From the NCBI GenBank assembly GCA_016432465.1, contig CP066690.1, positions 186,702 through 250,701 on the forward strand: a stretch of DNA of 64,000 nucleotides. The letters are read 5' to 3'. Origin of the DNA: Candidatus Sungiibacteriota bacterium. Lineage in GTDB: Bacteria > Patescibacteriota > Minisyncoccia > Sungbacterales > HO2-52-23. The translations under genes were made by a program, and so were the position numbers. Shown piece by piece: positions 3,955 through 58,554 of the stretch (position 1 is the first letter of the stretch; the number at the start of each line of letters is the position of its first letter). The notes beneath the pieces are model-generated. The model was not told where the DNA came from, made no database searches, and was given only the letters and a program-made list of their open reading frames with translations.

Positions 3955-4024
3955 CCCCGTTAGAGATAAGTCCCGACGTGACGTCGGGACTGCCGATACC
4001 CAAGGCATCGGATCTCTAACGGGG
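3955..4024. mobile_element. MITE-like element (~70 bp) with 13-bp terminal inverted repeats CCCCGTTAGAGAT / ATCTCTAACGGGG and the internal hairpin GTCCCGACGTGACGTCGGGAC
   Basis: Terminal inverted repeats read directly; the same core recurs at 33032-33133, 56867-56968 and 58365-58554. Confidence 0.55.
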
Positions 4025-4045
4025 CAAGCAAGATTCCGTAAAAGT

Positions 4046-4110: not shown

Positions 4111-7100
4111 TTAGTTTGAGAAGACGTTGGAAGACAGGTTGGTAGATGGAAGTCCTGGTACAAGGAAGCCGTTAGTCCAGTCAGTGGTTGAGGTTGCGGT
4201 TGAAATCGTGGTAGAGGTTGACATCGCTGACCACACAAAGTCGTTGTGAATGGCTGCGTTGCCCGAATCAATACCAAGCGCAACCGTAGCTGCTGTACAA
4301 AGCTTACCTCGCCCGGAATCGTGACAGCCTGTATTACCAAGCGCTTGGTCAGCCGTTGTGCTGGGGTTGGCTACGTGAGCAGGACGAGCGGCATCACCTT
4401 CAAGTTGTACGGTAATGGAGTTACCAGTTCCGGATCCGGGGTTAGTAATGTCTCCACGAAGCTCAAAGTATCGGGTTGCTCCGGCAGGAACAACGATTGC
4501 TTCGGTTGTGGAGGCAAGATTAGCCACCGGGCCAAAGAACCATACTACTTCACCAGTACCGCCACCTGCGGTTGAAGGAGCTGCCGGTGTGTTGGACGCA
4601 GTTGAGGTTACAGCCGTAGTAGCTACGTTACAACCGTTGGTGTCATTGTCTAAGTTAGACGAACCAGCACAATCAACATTGGAGCTATGAAGCGGGTTAT
4701 TGTCATACGCCTTAACCGAGAATCCAGAGTCAGTGTAGCCGTAAACGTTGAAGTTAGAAGATGTTGCCGAAACCGTAGAAGACGATACCAAGAAGGTGAA
4801 TTTGTAGAGCGCAATTGGTCCTGCCGCATCTGCCGTTACCTTAAAGCGATACATTACGGCAGCGGTTTGCGGAAGCGTAGTTGAAGGAACGGCAATTTTC
4901 TCAATTGTGGGTATAGATTTCATGATCTGCATGCCATTTCCCTGAACGCTGGGGCCGCTGGCCTGACCCAATCTCGCGCCTGACGACACACCAGTACCGG
5001 TTGAAGAACTGTTGGTGTCGTAGTTAATTGAGAGAATCCGACCGGCAGTGGTAGATGCTGTTACGCTGATGGTTCCTACGTCCGCCTTAACAGTAAGTAT
5101 CTTATCTCCATCTTTTGGCACTACGAAAGGAGCAGAAAGGGTGGAGGTTGCAAACTGCGCAGTTCCTGCCCAAACCGCTTCACCAATCTTAGTGGCGCCG
5201 TCCCACAACGAAACTTTCGTAAAGTCAGAGCTGGATGCTGTGGTGGAGGCGAAAGTAAGGGTGACATCCGTAATATTTACCGCTTCATCAACCGCCGAGT
5301 ACTTCAAGGCAAGCATAGGAACATCGGTCTTTCCTGAAAGAACCAGCGCTGCGGAAGGAGTGGCTCCATCCTTGGTTACGCTGAAAGAACCGGCAGATTT
5401 AATGGTCATAAGCGATCCGGTTCCCGTAGTAATGCTCTCGGTGATGCTTACACCTGTCTTTGCTCCGGAAGAACCAATGTTGGATGCGCCGGCATTAGTG
5501 CCCCAAGAATGGGTGCTATTGGCCGTTGCCGAGGAAGAAATGTTGCACTTAAGGTCAACTTTCTTAATGGTTCCTTTGGGAACAACAAGGTTGGTGGTAA
5601 GCGTGAAGGTGGTGTCATCAGTGGTTCCGGTTGAAGGATCGTCCGGGTTAACTACGTCGGATCCGCTGTTCAATTGCGTTGCGCCGTCATAGAGAATACA
5701 GCTATTCAACTCATCAAAAACACCGTTGGCTGATGCTGTATCTCGCAACTGGATGGAAGTAACCCGTACATCTTCACCTGATGCTACCGCATCAAAGATG
5801 TAGGTTGCGAAGTGGTATCCGTTAACTCCTTTTACTACGTTTTGCGCAAACGGCGTGTCGTTCACTGAAACTTTCAGCGCCGCCGGCTTTACGGTCTGAC
5901 CATTGGCTTGCACCAAGGTGCTAGCCGGAGTTGCGCTAATCGTAAGCCCGGTTATCGTGCCTTTGGCAGTGGTGTTGGACGGGTTAACACCGACTCTAAT
6001 AGTGTCATCCGCAACAAAGGAGGAATCAAGTTTGGCTTTTACAATATAAACATTGGCTCCTACTGGTGCGGTCCAGGTGTCTGTCCAAGCTACCTTACCA
6101 CTGGCTGGGTCTTTAGGACCAGCAACAATTCCGCCCTTGCTATCATACAGGGATACGCTCGTAACATCAGTTGATGTTCCGTTACCGGTAAAGGTGAAGT
6201 TTAAATCTATGGCCGTGAACTGAATGGGCTCGCCTTTTACGTCAAAAGTAAGGGCGCCAATCTCAATGTCAGACACCTCAACCGGAATGTTTCCGGAAGC
6301 AATCTTGTTAGAGCTTGAGAGAAGCACTGATCCTTTATCAATTGTTCCGGCATAAGCGTTGAAGAATGGCTCCTGATTAGAGGAGAATGCTCCCGCGCCA
6401 GCCGTACCGGATGATCCGCCGCCTACCACAATGTGGTAGCCGTAAAGTCTGCCTTGTACCACAATGTCTGCCTTCTTAAGAATGTCAAAGTCAAAGGTTC
6501 TGCCCGAACCGTCAACAACATCAATTTTTACAGATAAATCAATGTTGCCTCCCTTAATAACTTTTATGGGTTCGGTAAATTTGACAATGTAGTATTTGCC
6601 GTCAGAAGAAAGCTCTGTTGGGTACTCTTTATCTCCGGCTTTTACCACTACGTTCTTAAGGTCGGATTTGGCTGCAGATCCGGCTTGGTTGAAGCGAATC
6701 TGCCTAAAGTCAACATCTTCTGCCGAACCAACCGATGCTTTAACAGATGCCGCGTAGTAACCAACTGTTCCTACGTTTTTGGTGTTGGCAGCACCGGGAT
6801 CAAGCGAACCAATAGTCATGGTTACGCTTCCAATAGTCAGGGTGTTGTTGAAGGTCATTCCATTTCCGTCAATGGGGAACGTGCCGTTTACTTTAGAAGT
6901 ACCGGCGTCTATGGAAAGAACAGTCAACCGTCCTACCTGACCGGTTTGGTTGGTTAGGGAAGAAGCCGAGTTTACTGCAATAGTAACTGTCTTGGAAGTA
7001 CCTGCCTTAACCACCAAGCCATCCGTAAGGGTTGCTTTATGCTCCGAAGTTAAGGTCTTGGAGTTCCCAATCTGCGTTCCGTCCTCATCAAGGAGGAGAA

Positions 7101-9997: not shown

Positions 9998-10020
9998 CTA
10001 TAGAGGTCGGACCTCTATAG
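9998..10020. repeat. REP palindrome CTATAGAGGTCgGACCTCTATAG (copy 1, 10 bp upstream of the RAYT start)
   Basis: 23-bp unit with perfect 11-bp arms; four copies in the window. Confidence 0.8.
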
Positions 10021-10030
10021 AGTAAAAGAT

Positions 10031-10711
10031 ATGCACAACCAACAGGTACCAGAAGACAAATACTATCATGTTTATAACAGGGGCGTAGAGAAGAGAGATG
10101 TTTTTCTGAATAACTCAGATTACCATAGATTCTTATATCTTCTTTTTGCGTGCAATGATACTGCCCAACTTCTAAATTCCCAATTTCACTATAGAGGTCC
10201 GACCTCTATAGTAAATAAAGAACGAGATCAGCTTGTTGATATTATTTGTTTTTGTCTTATGCCGAATCACTATCATTTAATACTAAAACCAAGAAAAGAG
10301 AACGGTATGCCATTATTTATGCAAAAAATTGGCACCGGTTACACGATGTATTTTAATACAAAAAGGCAAAGAAGCGGTGTCTTATTTCAAGGCGGCTACA
10401 AATCTATATTAATTGATAATGAAGGCTATCTTTCCCATCTGACTCGCTACATCCATCTCAATCCAGCCGAGCTTATTGAACCAAAATGGAAAAAAGTAGG
10501 TATACTTAAAGCCAAAGAAACACACAAATTTGTAAAAGAGTATAAGTGGTCAAGTTACCGTGACTATCTGAATACACCACATTTTCCTCATTTGCTAAAC
10601 GTGGAACTTATCAAAGAACTATTCCTGCCAAAACAAGAATACGAGTCTTTTGTCCACGAGTGGTTAGTTGATAATATAAATCTGTTGGGGCGATATACCC
10701 TTGAAGATTAA
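10031..10711 (+). CDS. REP-associated tyrosine transposase (RAYT, IS200/Y1 transposase family)
   Basis: YHVYNRG, HuH motif MPNHYHLIL, catalytic Tyr motif RYIHLNP, and the RAYT-specific KWSSYRDY (W.WSS) motif; flanked by REP copies. Confidence 0.8.
   Translation: MHNQQVPEDKYYHVYNRGVEKRDVFLNNSDYHRFLYLLFACNDTAQLLNSQFHYRGPTSIVNKERDQLVDIICFCLMPNHYHLILKPRKENGMPLFMQKIGTGYTMYFNTKRQRSGVLFQGGYKSILIDNEGYLSHLTRYIHLNPAELIEPKWKKVGILKAKETHKFVKEYKWSSYRDYLNTPHFPHLLNVELIKELFLPKQEYESFVHEWLVDNINLLGRYTLED
10189..10211. repeat. REP palindrome copy 2 (centre base inverted), in-frame inside the RAYT CDS, encoding HYRGPTSIV
   Basis: CTATAGAGGTCcGACCTCTATAG inside the 10031..10711 ORF. Confidence 0.75.
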
Positions 10712-10734
10712 CTATAGAGGTCGGACCTCTATAG
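10712..10734. repeat. REP palindrome copy 3, immediately after the RAYT stop
   Basis: CTATAGAGGTCgGACCTCTATAG. Confidence 0.8.
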
Positions 10735-22399: not shown

Positions 22400-22423
22400 T
22401 ATATCCTAATTTTAGCATAAATC

Positions 22424-22461
22424 CCCCCACCTTTCCAGCGGGGTATTCTGGGAAGGTGGGG
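22424..22461. repeat. GC-rich hairpin-family copy CCCCCCACCTTTCCAGcggggtattCTGGGAAGGTGGGGG between pgk and the DHH gene
   Basis: Same unit as 40119-40159 and 39171-39348. Confidence 0.6.
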
Positions 22462-22480
22462 GATAAAATATAAAGCAGCG

Positions 22481-30655: not shown

Positions 30656-31321
30656 CTATCCGTAATATTTTTCTTTATAGAAACGAATTAGCTGTTCGAC
30701 CTCGGTGATGATTTCCGGCGAACCAACACCTACTTTTAATTTTTTCTGCACGCCGTCAAGATCCACCGCCCCTTCCAGCACCGCCTCCTCAATGTCTTTA
30801 TCGGTAATATTTAACTTGGGGTCAATCACGCGCGCTCCTTCTATTATAATACGCTTATGCTGCCCTGTCCTGCGGAAGTAATCGTTGACAGCTTTGCGGA
30901 AGGCCTTATCAGCAAGGACCGAGCAGTGGATTTTTCTATTCGGCAATCCGCCGAGCCGCTCCATAATATGCTGGGGCTTGATTTTCAACGCTTCATCCAT
31001 TGGCACCCCCCCTTTTTCAGTCACCATCACGGAAAACATAGAGGTTGCGGCAATGGCCGAGCCGCACCCAAACGTACGCCATTTCATTTCTTTTATTTTT
31101 TCAGTTTCCGGTTCAATTTTCAACCACATCTTCATCAGATCTCCGCATGCTGGGCTTCCCACCATTCCCACCGCATCATACTGCGACTCATCCGGGTCCT
31201 CCAGCATCAAATTCCGGGGATTGAAAAAGTGATCCTTGACAATGTCGGTGTAGTACCATTTTTCTCCGGTGAACTGATTCACAACATCGGCGCTGGTATC
31301 AACTTTAGGTTTTGATTCCAT
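30656..31321 (-). CDS. nifU: NifU/IscU-type Fe-S cluster assembly scaffold with a C-terminal extension
   Basis: GSPACGD...FGCGSAIA...HCSVLA three-Cys IscU motif. Confidence 0.85.
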   Translation of the reverse strand: MESKPKVDTSADVVNQFTGEKWYYTDIVKDHFFNPRNLMLEDPDESQYDAVGMVGSPACGDLMKMWLKIEPETEKIKEMKWRTFGCGSAIAATSMFSVMVTEKGGVPMDEALKIKPQHIMERLGGLPNRKIHCSVLADKAFRKAVNDYFRRTGQHKRIIIEGARVIDPKLNITDKDIEEAVLEGAVDLDGVQKKLKVGVGSPEIITEVEQLIRFYKEKYYG

Positions 31322-32655
31322 TATTTATAATTTTTACCGCCGACTTTGATTTTTGATCCTTGTCCCGCAAAGGCCTCCGGATGACTTACGGTTTTTTGCC
31401 CGATTTCCAGCCGCACTGGAGAAATTTTTCGCAGTTTCTCCACTATTCCCGGGAAAACTTCCAAAACATAATCCAAATCTTCTTTGGTGGTTCGCCTGCC
31501 TAAAGTAAACCGCAACGAGCCATGTGCGTATTCGTATGGCCGACCTATGGCCAAAATCACATGTGAGGGGTCAAGCGTAGTTGAGGTGCAGGCAGATCCG
31601 GTGGAAATATAAATTCCTTTAGCGTCAAGATATAAAATCACGGCTTCACCCTCAATATCCAGAACCGAAATATTTATATTATTGGGGAGACGTTTTTTCG
31701 GGTGCCCGTTCAAAACAATTTTGGGAACGCGCTTCATAACTTCGCTGATAAAATAATCGCGAAGTTTTAGGAGCCGAGCGTTTTCTTTTTCGCGCTCTTC
31801 TTGCGCCAGCTCAAACGCCTTGGCAAACCCTATAATTCCCGGGATATTTTCCGTGCCGGAGCGCAGATTATTTTCCTGCCCTCCGCCATAAATCAAGGGC
31901 CTTAAACGGATGCCGCGCCGGATATATAGACACCCAACTCCTTTGGGCCCGTAAATTTTTGACCCGTTCATGGCCAGTAAATCAACTCCTAGTTTTTGAA
32001 CATCCATATCCAATGCACCGGCCGCCTGACAGGCATCGGTATGGAAAAAGATCGGAGTCGGATTACCTGCGACTTTTCGTTCCTCGCGTATCTCTTTTAT
32101 TATTTTCCCAATTTCCTCAATCGGCTCAATGGTCCCAATTTCGTTATTAGCATACATTATTGAAACCAAAATCGTATACGGGCGAATAGCTTTTTTTATT
32201 TCTTCCTGACGAACAAGACCGTATTCGTCCACATCAAGATAAGTTACTTCCCAGCCAGAGGCTGGTCCGCCCCCGGCGGAAAATCCTTCTTTTTCCAACG
32301 CTTCCAGAGAATGCAATACGGCATGATGTTCAATTTTGGAAGTAATTATGTGCCTCCCTTGATCCTTATACATTCGGGCAACCCCAAAAATGGCAAGATT
32401 TATTGCTTCTGTGCCTCCTCCGGTAAACACAAGCTCTTCGGATTTGCAATTCAAAAGCCGCGCGACGACTGAACGCGCACTATCCAACGACTCTTTAGCT
32501 CGGCGCCCGGGACGATATAAACTTGAAGGATTACCATATTCTTCTTCCCAATACGGTTCCATTGCCTCGGCGACCCGAGGATCAAGATACGTTGTTGCCG
32601 CGTGATCAAGATATACCCCGTTAGAGATATATTTTGGAGCTTCCTTTTCAGTCAT
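31321..32655 (-). CDS. nifS: Cysteine desulfurase (NifS/IscS), start taken at the internal Met MTEKEAP
   Basis: YLDHAATT; PLP-Lys region SGSKIYGPKG; active-site loop STGSACTS. Confidence 0.85.
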   Translation of the reverse strand: MTEKEAPKYISNGVYLDHAATTYLDPRVAEAMEPYWEEEYGNPSSLYRPGRRAKESLDSARSVVARLLNCKSEELVFTGGGTEAINLAIFGVARMYKDQGRHIITSKIEHHAVLHSLEALEKEGFSAGGGPASGWEVTYLDVDEYGLVRQEEIKKAIRPYTILVSIMYANNEIGTIEPIEEIGKIIKEIREERKVAGNPTPIFFHTDACQAAGALDMDVQKLGVDLLAMNGSKIYGPKGVGCLYIRRGIRLRPLIYGGGQENNLRSGTENIPGIIGFAKAFELAQEEREKENARLLKLRDYFISEVMKRVPKIVLNGHPKKRLPNNINISVLDIEGEAVILYLDAKGIYISTGSACTSTTLDPSHVILAIGRPYEYAHGSLRFTLGRRTTKEDLDYVLEVFPGIVEKLRKISPVRLEIGQKTVSHPEAFAGQGSKIKVGGKNYK

Positions 32656-32703
32656 GTTCTTAACTGTGGAGAATATCACCCCCTTAGATGATTTGTTGAA
32701 CAA

Positions 32704-32716
32704 ATCTCTAACGGGG
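32704..32716. mobile_element. Solo MITE terminal-repeat remnant ATCTCTAACGGGG between the Rrf2 gene and nifS
   Basis: Matches the right-hand terminal repeat of the MITE family; imperfect partner CCCCTTAGATGA 20 bp upstream. Confidence 0.4.
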
Positions 32717-32726
32717 TAAACTTCCC

Positions 32727-33017
32727 TCATAATTTTTTAATAGTCCTTAACACCGGACAAAGTGAATAAATCGGCGCGTAAAAATCAATCAGGTTTCCAA
32801 CGGAAGCCGCCCGGCGACTTTCTGCAAGTCTATAACCACCACCCGCGCCCCTGCGAGACTCTAACCAACCGGCGTGTTTAAGTTCCTGCGCAACCTTCTC
32901 AAGATACGCTCGGGGGAGATGGAACTCCCCGGCTACGGTCCGTACGTCCGCGAACGTTTCTTTCTTCTGCTTCAAGTATTCAATTAATATTAATGCGTAA
33001 TCAAAACGCTTTTTCAT
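32727..33017 (-). CDS. Rrf2-family transcriptional regulator (IscR-like), apparently C-terminally truncated
   Basis: HTH region plus RRGAGGGYRL signature; only 96 aa; lacks the Cys-ligand region of IscR. Confidence 0.6.
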   Translation of the reverse strand: MKKRFDYALILIEYLKQKKETFADVRTVAGEFHLPRAYLEKVAQELKHAGWLESRRGAGGGYRLAESRRAASVGNLIDFYAPIYSLCPVLRTIKKL

Positions 33018-33018
33018 C

Positions 33019-33227
33019 CCGATAGTGATTTATCCCGTTAGAGATTTATTACGTATGGAAACATGCAGTAAGACGCGTTCCGCATACATTGATATCCTAC
33101 AAACCGCATTTAGTTCCATATCTCTAACGGGATTTACGGTTAGACTTGATAAATAACTTACTCCCATAGTAATTATACATATTATAACCCCGGCAGGTAT
33201 GAACTTTATCACTATCGGGATTCATAA
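33019..33227. mobile_element. Nested MITE-like element: outer inverted repeat TCCCGATAGTGAT / ATCACTATCGGGA enclosing an inner element (33032-33133) with ATCCCGTTAGAGAT / ATCTCTAACGGGAT terminal repeats
   Basis: Both inverted-repeat pairs read directly. Confidence 0.5.
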
Positions 33228-33275
33228 TTTCGGATACTTTTAGTCCGATTATATCTAAAAATATATAAGCCTTTT

Positions 33276-33298
33276 CTATAGAGGTCGGACCTCTATAG
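33276..33298. repeat. REP palindrome copy 4 (CTATAGAGGTCgGACCTCTATAG) just downstream of the peroxiredoxin gene
   Basis: Identical to the REPs flanking the RAYT. Confidence 0.8.
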
Positions 33299-33302
33299 AA
33301 AC

Positions 33303-39022: not shown

Positions 39023-39170
39023 ACCCTAAACGTAAAACAATGCTAAATCTGCAACAAGTGTACTTTTCCACACGATACTTCTCCGGTGCACACCCACATT
39101 AAAATTTGGTTTGGAGACGAGCGTCCATGACTTTCTAGGTGTGGGGTGATAAAAAAAGAAATCCATAAAT

Positions 39171-39348
39171 CCCCCCACCTTCCCAGCGGGGTATTGGACC
39201 CCGCGGGAAGGATTTCTACGGCACCCATTCATCCCCGCAGTCCAGCCTTCGTCCCGCTTCTAGCGGGACTACGGTCGCACGCCGCTATAGCTTTGGCGAC
39301 GGCGCGCGGAGTAGGCCAAGCTGCGGGGTATTCTGGGAAGGTGGGGGG
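39171..39348. repeat. Composite copy of the GC-rich hairpin family: the CCCCCCACCTTCCCAGCGGGGTATT hairpin interrupted by ~110 bp carrying the sub-hairpin GTCCCGCttctaGCGGGAC
   Basis: Half-sites at 39171-39211 and 39321-39348. Confidence 0.5.
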
Positions 39349-39602
39349 ATAAAAGATACTACACCACGTTTCGCTGTGTTATAATAAGAAGAGACGATGC
39401 AAAAATTGCACGCCTATAAGGTTTTTATCACTGGGGCACCTGAAAAACCTGGATCATAAAAAAGCTGTCAAGCACTTTGACAACCCCCACTTACTCACAA
39501 GTGGGGGTTGGTTGTTTACAAGGTGTGGGTAACTGCTGGAAATAGTATGGATAAGATCGGGACACCGCGCTGTACTTTGGCTGGTTTGGAGGCGGCCAAG
39601 GT

Positions 39603-40085: not shown

Positions 40086-40118
40086 GATTGACGTTGGTAA
40101 ACCCCCACACTCATAAAT

Positions 40119-40159
40119 CCCCCCACCTTCCCAGCGGGGTATTCTGGGAAGGTGGGGGG
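40119..40159. repeat. Canonical GC-rich hairpin CCCCCCACCTTCCCAG cggggtatt CTGGGAAGGTGGGGGG (perfect 16-bp stem), 9 nt 3' of tRNA-Gln
   Basis: Perfect palindrome; family recurs at 626-777, 22424-22461 and 39171-39348. Confidence 0.7.
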
Positions 40160-40167
40160 ATAAATTT

Positions 40168-48450: not shown

Positions 48451-48612
48451 GGGAACCTCCTCTCGTTTGATTGCCGCAGCGGTATGCTACGGCAACAAAG
48501 AAAAAACTAACCTCTTAACTCCCTCTTTGTTGCCGTAGAATATAGCCTATTTTAAGATACTTAGTAGCTAACTCAATAGTAACATAAATGTAGAAAAAAG
48601 TCAAATAAATTA

Positions 48613-48777
48613 GCCTACCCCGGGACTTGAACCCGAAACCCATTTACCCCGTTAGATGTGCCAATGAGCCGGTGGTCGGATTTGAACCGACGACCCACGC
48701 TTTACGAAAGCGTTGCTCTACCACTGAGCTACACCGGCACATCTAACGGGGTTGCTCTGCCATTGAGCTAGGTCGGC
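48613..48777 (-). other. Split tRNA-like sequence whose 5' half (acceptor and D-arm) and 3' half (T-arm and acceptor) are separated by an insertion bounded by a perfect 16-bp inverted repeat (CCCCGTTAGATGTGCC) that contains tRNA-Thr
   Basis: 5' half GCCGACCTAGCTCAATGGCAGAGCAACCCC; 3' half GGGGTAAATGGGTTTCGGGTTCAAGTCCCGGGGTAGGCT; inverted repeats at 48647-48662 and 48736-48751. Confidence 0.35.
48667..48738 (-). tRNA. tRNA-Thr (anticodon CGT)
   Basis: GCCGGTGTAGCTCAGTGGTAGAGCAACGCTTTCGTAAAGCGTGGGTCGTCGGTTCAAATCCGACCACCGGCT; anticodon stem ACGCT/AGCGT, loop TTCGTAA. Confidence 0.75.
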
Positions 48778-48840
48778 ATTTCTAACGTTCCTGCTAAACT
48801 GTCAAACATCGAACATGTCAAACATTGAATGTCTGACATA

Positions 48841-56464: not shown

Positions 56465-56701
56465 TTATGTTTCGTCTCGGGGGTAATAATCTTTCAGCTT
56501 TAACTTGTACTGATCACATTTTCTTTGCCATGCGCCAGCCAGTTTTCCAAGAGCCGAAACATTTATCAGCAGCACCTTGCCTAGTTTAGGAACGTGAACC
56601 TTAACGTAACTTGGGCAAACGTTGATAATAACTATGTCTTCCTCCGTAAGATTTTCGTAGGGGAGTTCGTCAAAATCGGGCTGTTTCGGCCTTTCCGGCA
56701 T
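56465..56701 (-). CDS. Small hypothetical protein (78 aa from the internal Met MPERPKQ)
   Basis: GGAGAAGGA Shine-Dalgarno 4 nt upstream of that Met. Confidence 0.4.
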   Translation of the reverse strand: MPERPKQPDFDELPYENLTEEDIVIINVCPSYVKVHVPKLGKVLLINVSALGKLAGAWQRKCDQYKLKLKDYYPRDET

Positions 56702-56866
56702 ATTCCTTCTCCTCTCGTGAGCTAAAATAGACGTAGCACACCCGTGCGACTTTTGCAAATTTCGGTTTTCTTTCTTCTGACAAGCGGGCCGCCCGCCCAT
56801 CTTTGATGGGCGGGGCGAGCCTCGCTCAACTTGCAAAGTAAATTGAGCGGGCCGAGTTTTGGATAA

Positions 56867-56968
56867 ATCCCGTTAGAGATGCGGAACGTAATGTTCTTTG
56901 TGACATCAATAAGAATGGCGGAGTGCTTGTATCAACCGTTTCAGTACTGCATAAATCTCTAACGGGAT
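56867..56968. mobile_element. MITE-like element copy (102 bp), terminal repeats ATCCCGTTAGAGAT / ATCTCTAACGGGAT
   Basis: Terminal repeats read directly; internal sequence is the reverse complement of unit 2 of the 58365-58554 copy. Confidence 0.6.
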
Positions 56969-58306: not shown

Positions 58307-58364
58307 TATACCCGGATTTGGTGTGGTGTCAACAACTTATTTTTTTGTACCGAGTTTTGGATTT

Positions 58365-58554
58365 ATCCCGTTAGAGATGCAGGTCATATCCTTAATGCGA
58401 GCTTAGCGTGAAAAGCTATTTACCACTTGGTAATTTTCGGATTTGCACTTAATTCTCTAACGGGATTTATGCAGTACTGAAACGATTGATACACACACTC
58501 CGCCATTCTTACTGATGTCGCAAAAAACACTGCATTCCGCGTCTCTAACGGGAC
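58365..58554. mobile_element. Composite MITE-like element: terminal repeat - unit 1 - terminal repeat - unit 2 (inverted copy of the 56867-56968 core) - terminal repeat
   Basis: ATCCCGTTAGAGAT at 58365-58378; ATTCTCTAACGGGAT at 58452-58466; GTCTCTAACGGGAC at 58541-58554. Confidence 0.6.

Follow-up and report, generated by a model that had tools for sequence, protein, structure and literature searches.

Short hairpin-forming repeats of Patescibacteria and a small GIY-YIG nuclease gene as their probable partner

Short, non-coding units with terminal inverted repeats at both ends occur in multiple copies in a 64-kb stretch of DNA from a Candidatus Sungiibacteriota bacterium (contig CP066690.1; the whole stretch of 64,000 nucleotides is called the window below). 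They form a non-autonomous family that resembles MITEs (miniature inverted-repeat transposable elements) and that has inserted repeatedly and fairly recently, as indicated by target duplications, nesting and an in-frame insertion in a NifS-like gene. The units are probably the gene-less members of a tiny selfish family whose autonomous form is an element of ~280 bp in which the gene of an Ssn-like GIY-YIG nuclease lies between the same arms. The original prediction, made from the window alone, had proposed a non-autonomous MITE-like family, and this was borne out by the target duplications, the nesting and the many copies outside the window, in at least 120 loci.

Repeat units in the window

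The window was scanned on both strands for CCCGTTAGAGAT with at most one mismatch, and 100 shuffles served as the control. There were 11 matches in the window compared to a shuffle mean of 0.18 and a maximum of 3, and none of the 100 shuffles reached 11. The arms CCCGTTAGAGAT/ATCTCTAACGGG formed five canonical inverted pairs, and there were two variant pairs in addition, giving units of 70-204 bp. The units and the remnant of an older copy were as follows:

3955-4024, no strand: u1, a 70-bp hairpin unit with arms CCCGTTAGAGAT/ATCTCTAACGGG and a 44-nt core with two internal hairpins
32616-32716, within the NifS-like gene (31321-32730, minus strand): u2, a 101-bp unit inserted in frame at codon 5
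33033-33132, no strand: u3-inner, 100 bp, flanked by a perfect duplication of TTTA (33029-32 and 33133-36)
33017-33220, no strand: u3-outer, a variant unit with arms CCCGATAGTGAT/ATCACTATCGGG that differ by two base changes, both compensated
48647-48751, minus strand: a variant unit with perfect arms CCCGTTAGATGTGCC/GGCACATCTAACGGG that encloses tRNA-Thr(CGU) at 48666-48738
56868-56967, no strand: u4, 100 bp, flanked by a perfect duplication of TAAA (56864-67 and 56968-71)
58366-58465, no strand: u5a, a 100-bp unit with a perfect TTTA duplication (58362-65 and 58466-69)
58470-58553, no strand: u5b, a remnant with a core 89% complementary to u4 and the right arm GTCTCTAACGGG

The inverted pairs lay where they had been predicted, at 3955-4024, 33033-33132, 56868-56967 and 58366-58465, with a third arm at 58541-58552 on the 3′ side of the u5a pair, and the unit at 33 kb was nested in a second pair as claimed. 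The arm at 32704-32716, which had been described as a solo repeat, proved to be partnered by an arm at 32617-32628 and belongs to u2. Four units were exactly 100 bp long when the terminal pyrimidine:purine (Y:R) pair was counted, and u2 was 101 bp. When the window units were folded as single-stranded DNA the arms were paired, with z-scores of -3.3 to -10.3; the fold of u1 had -30.1 kcal/mol and z = -10.3.

As predicted, the cores differed or were inverted between copies. Positions 56868-56957 and 58464-58553 were 89% complementary over 90 nt, and the cores of u4 and u5b are thus copies in opposite orientation. Both were related to the core of u3-inner, and the cores of u1, u2 and u5a were unrelated and could not be aligned. 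Two of the units were themselves targets. u3-inner was nested 4 nt inside the left arm of u3-outer, and u5a was inserted in the older copy u5b at its arm/core junction, with the left arm of u5b replaced or disrupted by u5a. The left arm of u3-outer adjoined the ATG of the Rrf2 gene (CAT at 33015-33017), and its perfect TTCA duplication (33013-16 and 33221-24) included the Rrf2 start codon. u1 was placed between two terminator-like hairpins, and u4 lay between a methyltransferase gene and an open reading frame (ORF) at 56465-56836.

Some further observations concern the surroundings of these units. The flanks of u1, AAAAA and CAAGC, held no duplication, and the sequence GCAAGC on its right flank (4025-4030) was also present at L016, L020, L041, L048 and L056 (L numbers denote the loci described below), without a matching left flank, unlike the usual duplication. 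The sequence CCGAGTTTTGGAT stood just before both u4 (56852-56864) and u5 (58350-58362); it may represent an arm, in decayed or variant form, of an older element that was invaded by u4 and u5. The Rrf2 gene (32727-33017), upstream of NifS, encoded only 96 aa that matched positions 1-78 of the 132 in the Pfam profile, and it overlapped the NifS start as ATGA. Of five short-read unitigs with a peroxiredoxin gene (L121-L125), four stopped ~15 nt inside u3 (window position ~33107) and the fifth stopped earlier.

Arms and insertion sites across genomes

Outside the window, loci were collected that carried the exact arm pair with a gap of 50-80 nt, using one genome per species. At least 120 loci were found, mostly in metagenome-assembled genomes of Patescibacteria, and the other hosts were Omnitrophota (contigs up to 593 kb), Planctomycetota, Elusimicrobiota, WOR-3, Ratteibacteria and a few proteobacterial bins. 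Statistics on units were drawn from 128 units, and the tRNA census covered about 150 units in total. Unit length was bimodal, at ~77 and ~98-100 nt. The cores were mostly unrelated, with only 19 of the 128 falling into clusters, and the core families had a constant orientation to the adjacent gene (8/8 and 6/6). At orthologous positions the arms stayed perfect while the cores diverged (L009/L119/L072 and L077/L106). The distribution was patchy, with CCCGTTAGA absent from 80 loci (547 kb) that were selected by NifS homology, and the arm pair occurred in 0 of 2.9 million viral contigs. A scan of the window against Rfam at gathering thresholds and an E-value scan of 32550-33300 gave only tRNAs and noise, with no matching family. 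A literature search with the motif returned only unrelated primers, and the literature searches on MITEs in candidate phyla or at start codons brought up nothing relevant.

The repeat had originally been described as a sequence of 13-14 bp. Its inverted pairing held, but a fixed 13-14-mer did not, since the conserved repeat consists of nine invariant bases, CCCGTTAGA, at least three compensated pairs and one terminal Y:R pair. In bystander and variant units the arm was nearly invariant at positions 1-9, whereas positions 10-12 showed 36 compensated changes and at least 10 variant types, including GAT, AAT, AGC, AAC, AGT, TGT, GGT and GAC. One further arm variant, CATTT, had a compensated G-to-C change at position 8. 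The variation with compensation at positions 10-12 shows that the pairing of the stem is under selection, and together with the fixed positions 1-9 it means that the base of the stem is read as sequence and that pairing alone is needed above it. The base before CCCG was complementary to the base after CGGG in 120 of the 128 units. Arm-only mini hairpins with loops of 6-8 nt also existed, for example in L087 at 6093-6122 and 6161-6192. A full unit in L107 corresponded to a mini hairpin in L087, and cores can therefore be lost while the arms are kept. Dense arrays of units and mini hairpins surrounded a GIY-YIG gene in L087 (5270-6200, where the gene was frameshifted) and in L107 (5350-6880).

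The bases around the units showed a clear sign of insertion. The six bases on each side fitted R-YNNR-Y, which gives R|YNNR|Y as the insertion target, and a perfect 4-bp direct repeat at flank positions 2-5 was present in 78 of the 128 units (61%), compared to 11.6 on average and 25 at most in permutations. The units thus have a target-site duplication of fixed length, as MITEs do, and the commonest duplications were TTCA/TGAA, TCAA, TCCA, TAAA and TTTA. Because the terminal bases complement each other and flank positions 2-5 match, the element can be written as Y-CCCG...CGGG-R plus a 4-bp duplication. The nested units in the window (u3 and u5) and in L030, L091 and L055 were inserted at the arm/core junction, where GAT|TTAT re-forms the insertion target. 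Unit ends that pair with each other and a 4-bp duplication set the family apart from palindromes derived from IS200/IS605, in which each end has a subterminal hairpin of its own and the target is not duplicated. An integron attC site was also considered and was rejected by motif order and by the duplications; the window motif read 5′-GTTAGA...TCTAAC-3′ on both strands, the reverse of the attC order 5′-RYYYAAC...GTTRRRY-3′, and there were no cassette arrays.

For u2, the state of the gene before the insertion could be reconstructed. NifS homologues open with MKxVYLDHAATT, and the window gene reads MREVY-[unit]-VYLDHAATT with VY duplicated, which gives MREVY|LDHAATT as the ancestral N-terminus; the empty state for u2 comes from NifS homologues of other species. 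Unit and duplication together added 35 codons in frame after codon 5, and the Aminotran_5 domain of the protein began at residue 39. The repeats that flank u2 were TATA (32612-32615) and TAAA (32717-32720), or TTTA and TATA in the orientation of the gene. An internal ATG with a Shine-Dalgarno-like AAGGGGGTG was present inside u2. Rickettsia palindromic elements likewise insert in frame within genes.

Internal interruption of genes by units was rare, and surviving copies lay at gene boundaries, where the terminal R and a TG-initial duplication rebuild an ATG or GTG downstream and the TAG in the left arm can terminate the upstream ORF. A gap-free ATG or GTG start of an ORF of at least 50 aa directly followed the unit in 50 of the 128 units, with the terminal R as the first base of the codon. 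The upstream copy of the duplication was also a start codon in 39 of 49 start-adjoining units, and a Shine-Dalgarno motif was missing in 46 of the 49. Hexamers resembling a -10 box were concentrated 6-7 nt upstream, and 21/49 lay within 4-9 nt compared to 9/49 in the control window. These results suggest that many of the targets were the first nucleotides of leaderless genes. An intron-like nature of the units was rejected, as removal of the unit generally restored no split gene and unit lengths had no 3-nt periodicity; a long 'restored' frame arose once, in L063, and it resembles a spurious antisense ORF.

Many units thus stand exactly at gene 5′ ends and downstream of -10-like boxes, the core families keep a constant orientation, and the stems are compensated, all of which could mean that the units are host regulatory RNA, 5′-leader structures or invertible promoter switches and not mobile DNA. 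We consider this most improbable. Direct repeats, nesting, and insertions in coding sequence and at tRNA ends are not accounted for, the sequence of the 9-bp helix is kept across phyla while the cores are unrelated, and the patchy distribution, the lack of an Rfam match and the lack of an invertase gene nearby all speak against it. An invertible promoter was specifically rejected on the motif order and the duplications.

The original prediction had also suggested that the family originated from, or targets, a tRNA anticodon stem-loop. The motif core was indeed part of the inverted repeat of 15-17 nt around tRNA-Thr at 48647-48751. This unit occupied the place of the anticodon arm in an outer tRNA-like gene (~48612-48780, minus strand) that was otherwise imperfect, and the ACCCC-GTTAGAT of the arm would itself form an anticodon stem and loop. 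A second, independent case was found in L031 (5830-6050), where a tRNA-Ala(CGC) between canonical arms stood after nucleotide 38 of a well-formed tRNA-Glu(UUC). Here the anticodon stem of the host tRNA was outside the arms, and its loop, TTTTCAC, merely contains the general target T|TTCA|C. In addition, a unit adjoined tRNA-Pro at its 5′ end in L048, L095 and L116, and in L028 a unit adjoined tRNA-Thr at its 3′ end. The two cases of a tRNA within a tRNA are too specific for chance, but they give no support to a tRNA origin of the family. ARAGORN found a tRNA in only two cores, and the same two units were the only ones among ~150 in an anticodon arm, a pattern that fits neither tRNA-derived elements nor introns. 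As insertions with the target R|YNNR|Y lay mostly at protein-gene boundaries, a derivation from anticodon stem-loops, or specific targeting of them, is very unlikely.

A GIY-YIG gene between the same arms

A small GIY-YIG gene of 86 codons, encoding a single domain with a PF01541 match, recurred beside the units. An endonuclease gene with the same end repeats had been proposed as something to look for, and in all eight independent loci that were fetched via the protein (L206, L207-209, L210, L211-213, L214, L215, L216-217 and L218-227) the GIY-YIG gene lay between the same arms. The left arm, Y-CCCGTTAGA-NNN, was separated from the ATG by a spacer of 5-8 nt, and the right arm, NNN-TCTAACGGG-R, encoded the C-terminus of the nuclease (..FLSLTG) beside the stop codon, giving an arm-gene-arm element of ~275-280 bp overall. 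The arms were partly decayed in L215 and L218, with a degenerate right arm in L218. The residues LTG that are encoded by the right arm ended 18 of 20 aligned nuclease homologues. The units accordingly have a coding partner element with the same ends, as is expected of MITEs, though its protein is no known transposase.

The nuclease family comprised 2509 clusters at 90% identity and 1188 representatives at 50% identity (E <= 1e-10), and homologues were 70-80% identical across Patescibacteria, Omnitrophota, Planctomycetota and Kazan. The gene was present in 7 arm-selected loci (839 kb) compared to none in the NifS-selected loci (547 kb). The predicted fold was GIY-YIG (pLDDT 91), with UPF0213 BH0048, Slx1 and I-TevI as the best matches, and the protein matched PDB 1ZG2 with E = 7e-7. 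A tblastn search of the nuclease against plasmids gave no match, and a search with the 3′ end of the gene in viral contigs gave one chance match within a phage ORF. The only element longer than 300 bp with the same ends in the loci, in L001 (386 bp), was a decayed nuclease gene with a nested unit. Similarity between unit cores and the subterminal parts of the nuclease gene was no better than for shuffled cores, except for a few units (L060, L001) that kept GAAGCGTTTCCT.

Autonomous copies kept a constant orientation to the neighbouring genes. The nuclease element lay within operons and was co-oriented with the upstream gene, as in pgk-[element]-tpiA (L214) and trpE-[element]-trpG (L216). The upstream ORF often ended at the TAG of the left arm (L206, L214 and L216), and the next gene began 0-4 nt past the element in L208, L211, L214, L216 and L218. 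In L208, two more short units were found less than 10 kb from the nuclease gene. A more distant small GIY-YIG gene in L106 (3163-3513) had no CCCGTTAGA arms; its place was the 5′ end of a tRNA gene, and 17 nt of the tRNA start (ATGCGTCGGTGGTAGAG) stood as a direct repeat on its two sides. It may represent another insertion strategy in the same protein superfamily.

Duplications of 4 bp, terminal inverted repeats of 13 bp and a palindromic target are typical of cut-and-paste transposons, and GIY-YIG enzymes are without known strand-transfer chemistry. The units and the GIY-YIG cassette could thus be passengers of an unsampled DDE transposase, with the nuclease as cargo. Candidates would be IS1380/piggyBac-like elements, which end in CC(C) and make 4-bp duplications; piggyBac ends are CCCTAGAAAGATA. 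We give this alternative little credit. No transposase was found beside units in the ~840 kb of arm-selected loci or in the window, no DDE element with these ends was found in ~1.5 Mb of fetched loci, and clustering of neighbouring genes showed no transposase family enriched beside the units. The GIY-YIG gene was the only coding element seen with the arms, and its C-terminus is written in the arm. Compensated arm changes suit a folded stem and not two duplex ends that are read separately, and Ssn proteins with hairpin repeats provide a precedent.

As had been predicted, the window contained no transposase with CCCGTTAGAGAT/ATCTCTAACGGG ends, and its one gene of the REP-associated tyrosine transposase (RAYT) type uses its own, unrelated repetitive extragenic palindrome (REP). 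Because the RAYT gene was flanked by the REP CTATAGAGGTCGGACCTCTATAG and not by unit arms, the units do not belong to a REP/REPIN-RAYT system. The sequence of this REP was CTATAGAGGTC(G/C)GACCTCTATAG, and one of its copies lay 56 nt from u3-outer. A second, unrelated palindromic family, CCCCCCACCTTCCCAG-CGGGGTATT-CTGGGAAGGTGGGGGG, had several copies in the window, one of which adjoined tRNA-Gln. These features were located as follows:

10031-10711: RAYT-type Y1 transposase gene
9998-10020, 10189-10211, 10712-10734 and 33276-33298: REP copies
22416-22469, 39164-39217, 39323-39353, 40112-40165, 619-640 and 743-786: copies of CCCCCCACCTTCCCAG-CGGGGTATT-CTGGGAAGGTGGGGGG

Proposed mechanism and known systems

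The SsnA protein of Neisseria meningitidis has 94 aa and a single GIY-YIG domain, and Ssn proteins bind hairpin repeats as single-stranded DNA and cut upstream of them; their genes are flanked by those repeats, and homologues in many phyla are flanked by related hairpins, the Ssn-related motifs or SRM (PMC11893778). By analogy with SsnA and its NTS repeats, a mechanism can be proposed for the family described here. The arms can pair into a hairpin of 12-14 bp in which the basal 9 bp are kept in sequence and the upper pairs only as pairs, and since the hairpin is the same on either strand, the two ends of the element are symmetric. The nuclease would recognise the folded arms in single-stranded DNA, which could be that of a replication fork, an extruded cruciform or transforming DNA entering the cell, and on either strand its cut would fall in the variable flank, some nucleotides 5′ of the stem. 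The short units would be substrates that are mobilised in trans. With a purely hydrolytic enzyme, integration would have to be completed by host ligation, repair or replication.

Several points weigh against the nuclease element as the autonomous form. The 64-kb window held no GIY-YIG gene or remnant, and the link between units and nuclease in the source genome therefore consists of the shared arms only. As most cores were unlike the nuclease gene, internal deletion alone fails to explain the short units. Only one of the eight autonomous copies had a 4-bp duplication, and such a duplication is a classical signature of DDE transposases; we know of no strand transfer by GIY-YIG enzymes. The best solved relative of the nuclease, which is a candidate member of the Ssn clade (cd10448), was a UPF0213 protein, and the published SRM consensus matched nowhere in the window and on no model arm hairpin. 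Finally, no presence/absence polymorphism was seen, as contigs of the same population from other samples were either identical with the units present (u4 included) or broken inside a unit.

The last observation also bears on whether the repeats could be immobile sites that the host has adopted for a domesticated Ssn-type nuclease, which might, for example, cut incoming single-stranded DNA in transformation, a role that has been proposed for SsnA and NTS in Neisseria. SsnA modulates transformation through the NTS repeats (PMC11893778), the units of the window population are fixed and identical across samples, and the arms remain perfect at the orthologous positions where the cores have diverged. 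However, the 61% of perfect duplications, the nesting and the in-frame NifS insertion point to repeated and fairly recent insertion, and the conservation of arms at orthologous sites is biased by a locus search that used exact matches. A domesticated role is compatible with past mobility and thus only a partial rival, and as the sole explanation of the repeats we find it improbable.

The reading of the units as gene-less relatives of the nuclease element can be extended. The ~280-bp unit might by itself be a complete autonomous transposon, below the size of all accepted insertion sequences, whose transposition is driven by an 86-residue hydrolytic nuclease specific for single-stranded hairpins and by host repair or replication. 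Such an element would found a new class of transposons by mechanism, and its miniature derivatives would prefer the opening nucleotides of genes that are often leaderless and could bring tRNA genes into other tRNAs. We put this forward tentatively, as a possibility that is more doubtful than the family relationship itself. If the nuclease does mobilise the elements, this would be the smallest autonomous transposon known, with a chemistry that no known transposase uses. The host lineages (Patescibacteria, Omnitrophota and others) have hardly any known transposons. In practice, the units break short-read assemblies and mislead gene callers, as start codons are duplicated and ORFs run on into the arms, which then read as the peptides PVRD and ISNG. 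Together with the nuclease, the arm sequence also makes a candidate pair for tools that act on single-stranded DNA.

Several known systems share some of these features. Free-standing GIY-YIG homing endonucleases (I-TevI and the phage Seg proteins) are likewise selfish nuclease genes between host genes and have a similar catalytic fold. In contrast to the nuclease described here, they bind DNA through a separate domain, their substrates are double-stranded cognate alleles and recombination is their means of spread, and they have no terminal inverted repeats, miniature derivatives or 4-bp duplications. Classical MITEs (Correia/NEMIS and RUP) are similar in their length of ~70-150 bp, their terminal inverted repeats and target duplications, and their many copies beside genes. 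However, they derive from insertion sequences with a DDE transposase and share internal sequence, whereas the cores of this family are for the most part unrelated and an 86-aa nuclease is all that the partner encodes. REP/REPIN-RAYT systems are also short palindromes that are spread by a single-copy nuclease gene flanked by the repeats, and recognition of single-stranded hairpins has been proposed for them. They differ in using a Y1 HUH transposase instead of a GIY-YIG enzyme, in having REPs without target duplication, and in REPINs being REP doublets with paired cores.

The closest known system appears to be SsnA with its NTS hairpin repeats, and cutting of single-stranded hairpins is predicted for the new nuclease as well. 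When SsnA was compared by its published description, the Ssn/NTS/dRS3 system shared with this family a single-domain GIY-YIG protein of ~90 aa. The invariant Y5 and Y16 and the near-invariant E62 of the new nuclease are offset by 1-2 positions from Y6, Y17 and E64 of SsnA. Both systems have inverted repeats with the potential to form a hairpin on the two sides of the gene, many gene-less repeat copies exist, mostly outside genes, and the base of the hairpin is similar in sequence (..TCAT-TCCCG.. in NTS and ..TCAT-CCCG.. in this family). The layout differs, as the gene of this family is inside one large hairpin and the Neisseria gene stands between two complete short hairpins, and loops range from 6 to ~250 nt in this family compared to 0-5 nt in NTS. 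The hosts here are Patescibacteria, Omnitrophota and similar lineages, and the 4-bp duplications, nesting and start-codon insertions are unreported for NTS. Chenal et al. (2025) called the NTS-ssnA-NTS layout insertion-sequence-like and listed Rickettsia among the genomes rich in SRM (PMC11893778), and the Rickettsia palindromic elements may be related to this family. Ssn nucleases were described only in 2025, and the descent of their hairpin repeats from a mobile element was a suspicion that had yet to be demonstrated. The family described here supplies the missing genomic signs of mobility, namely target duplications, nesting and a coding insertion with a reconstructable prior form. It is a new form of the Ssn/hairpin-repeat systems, and their transposition has its clearest genomic evidence to date in this family.

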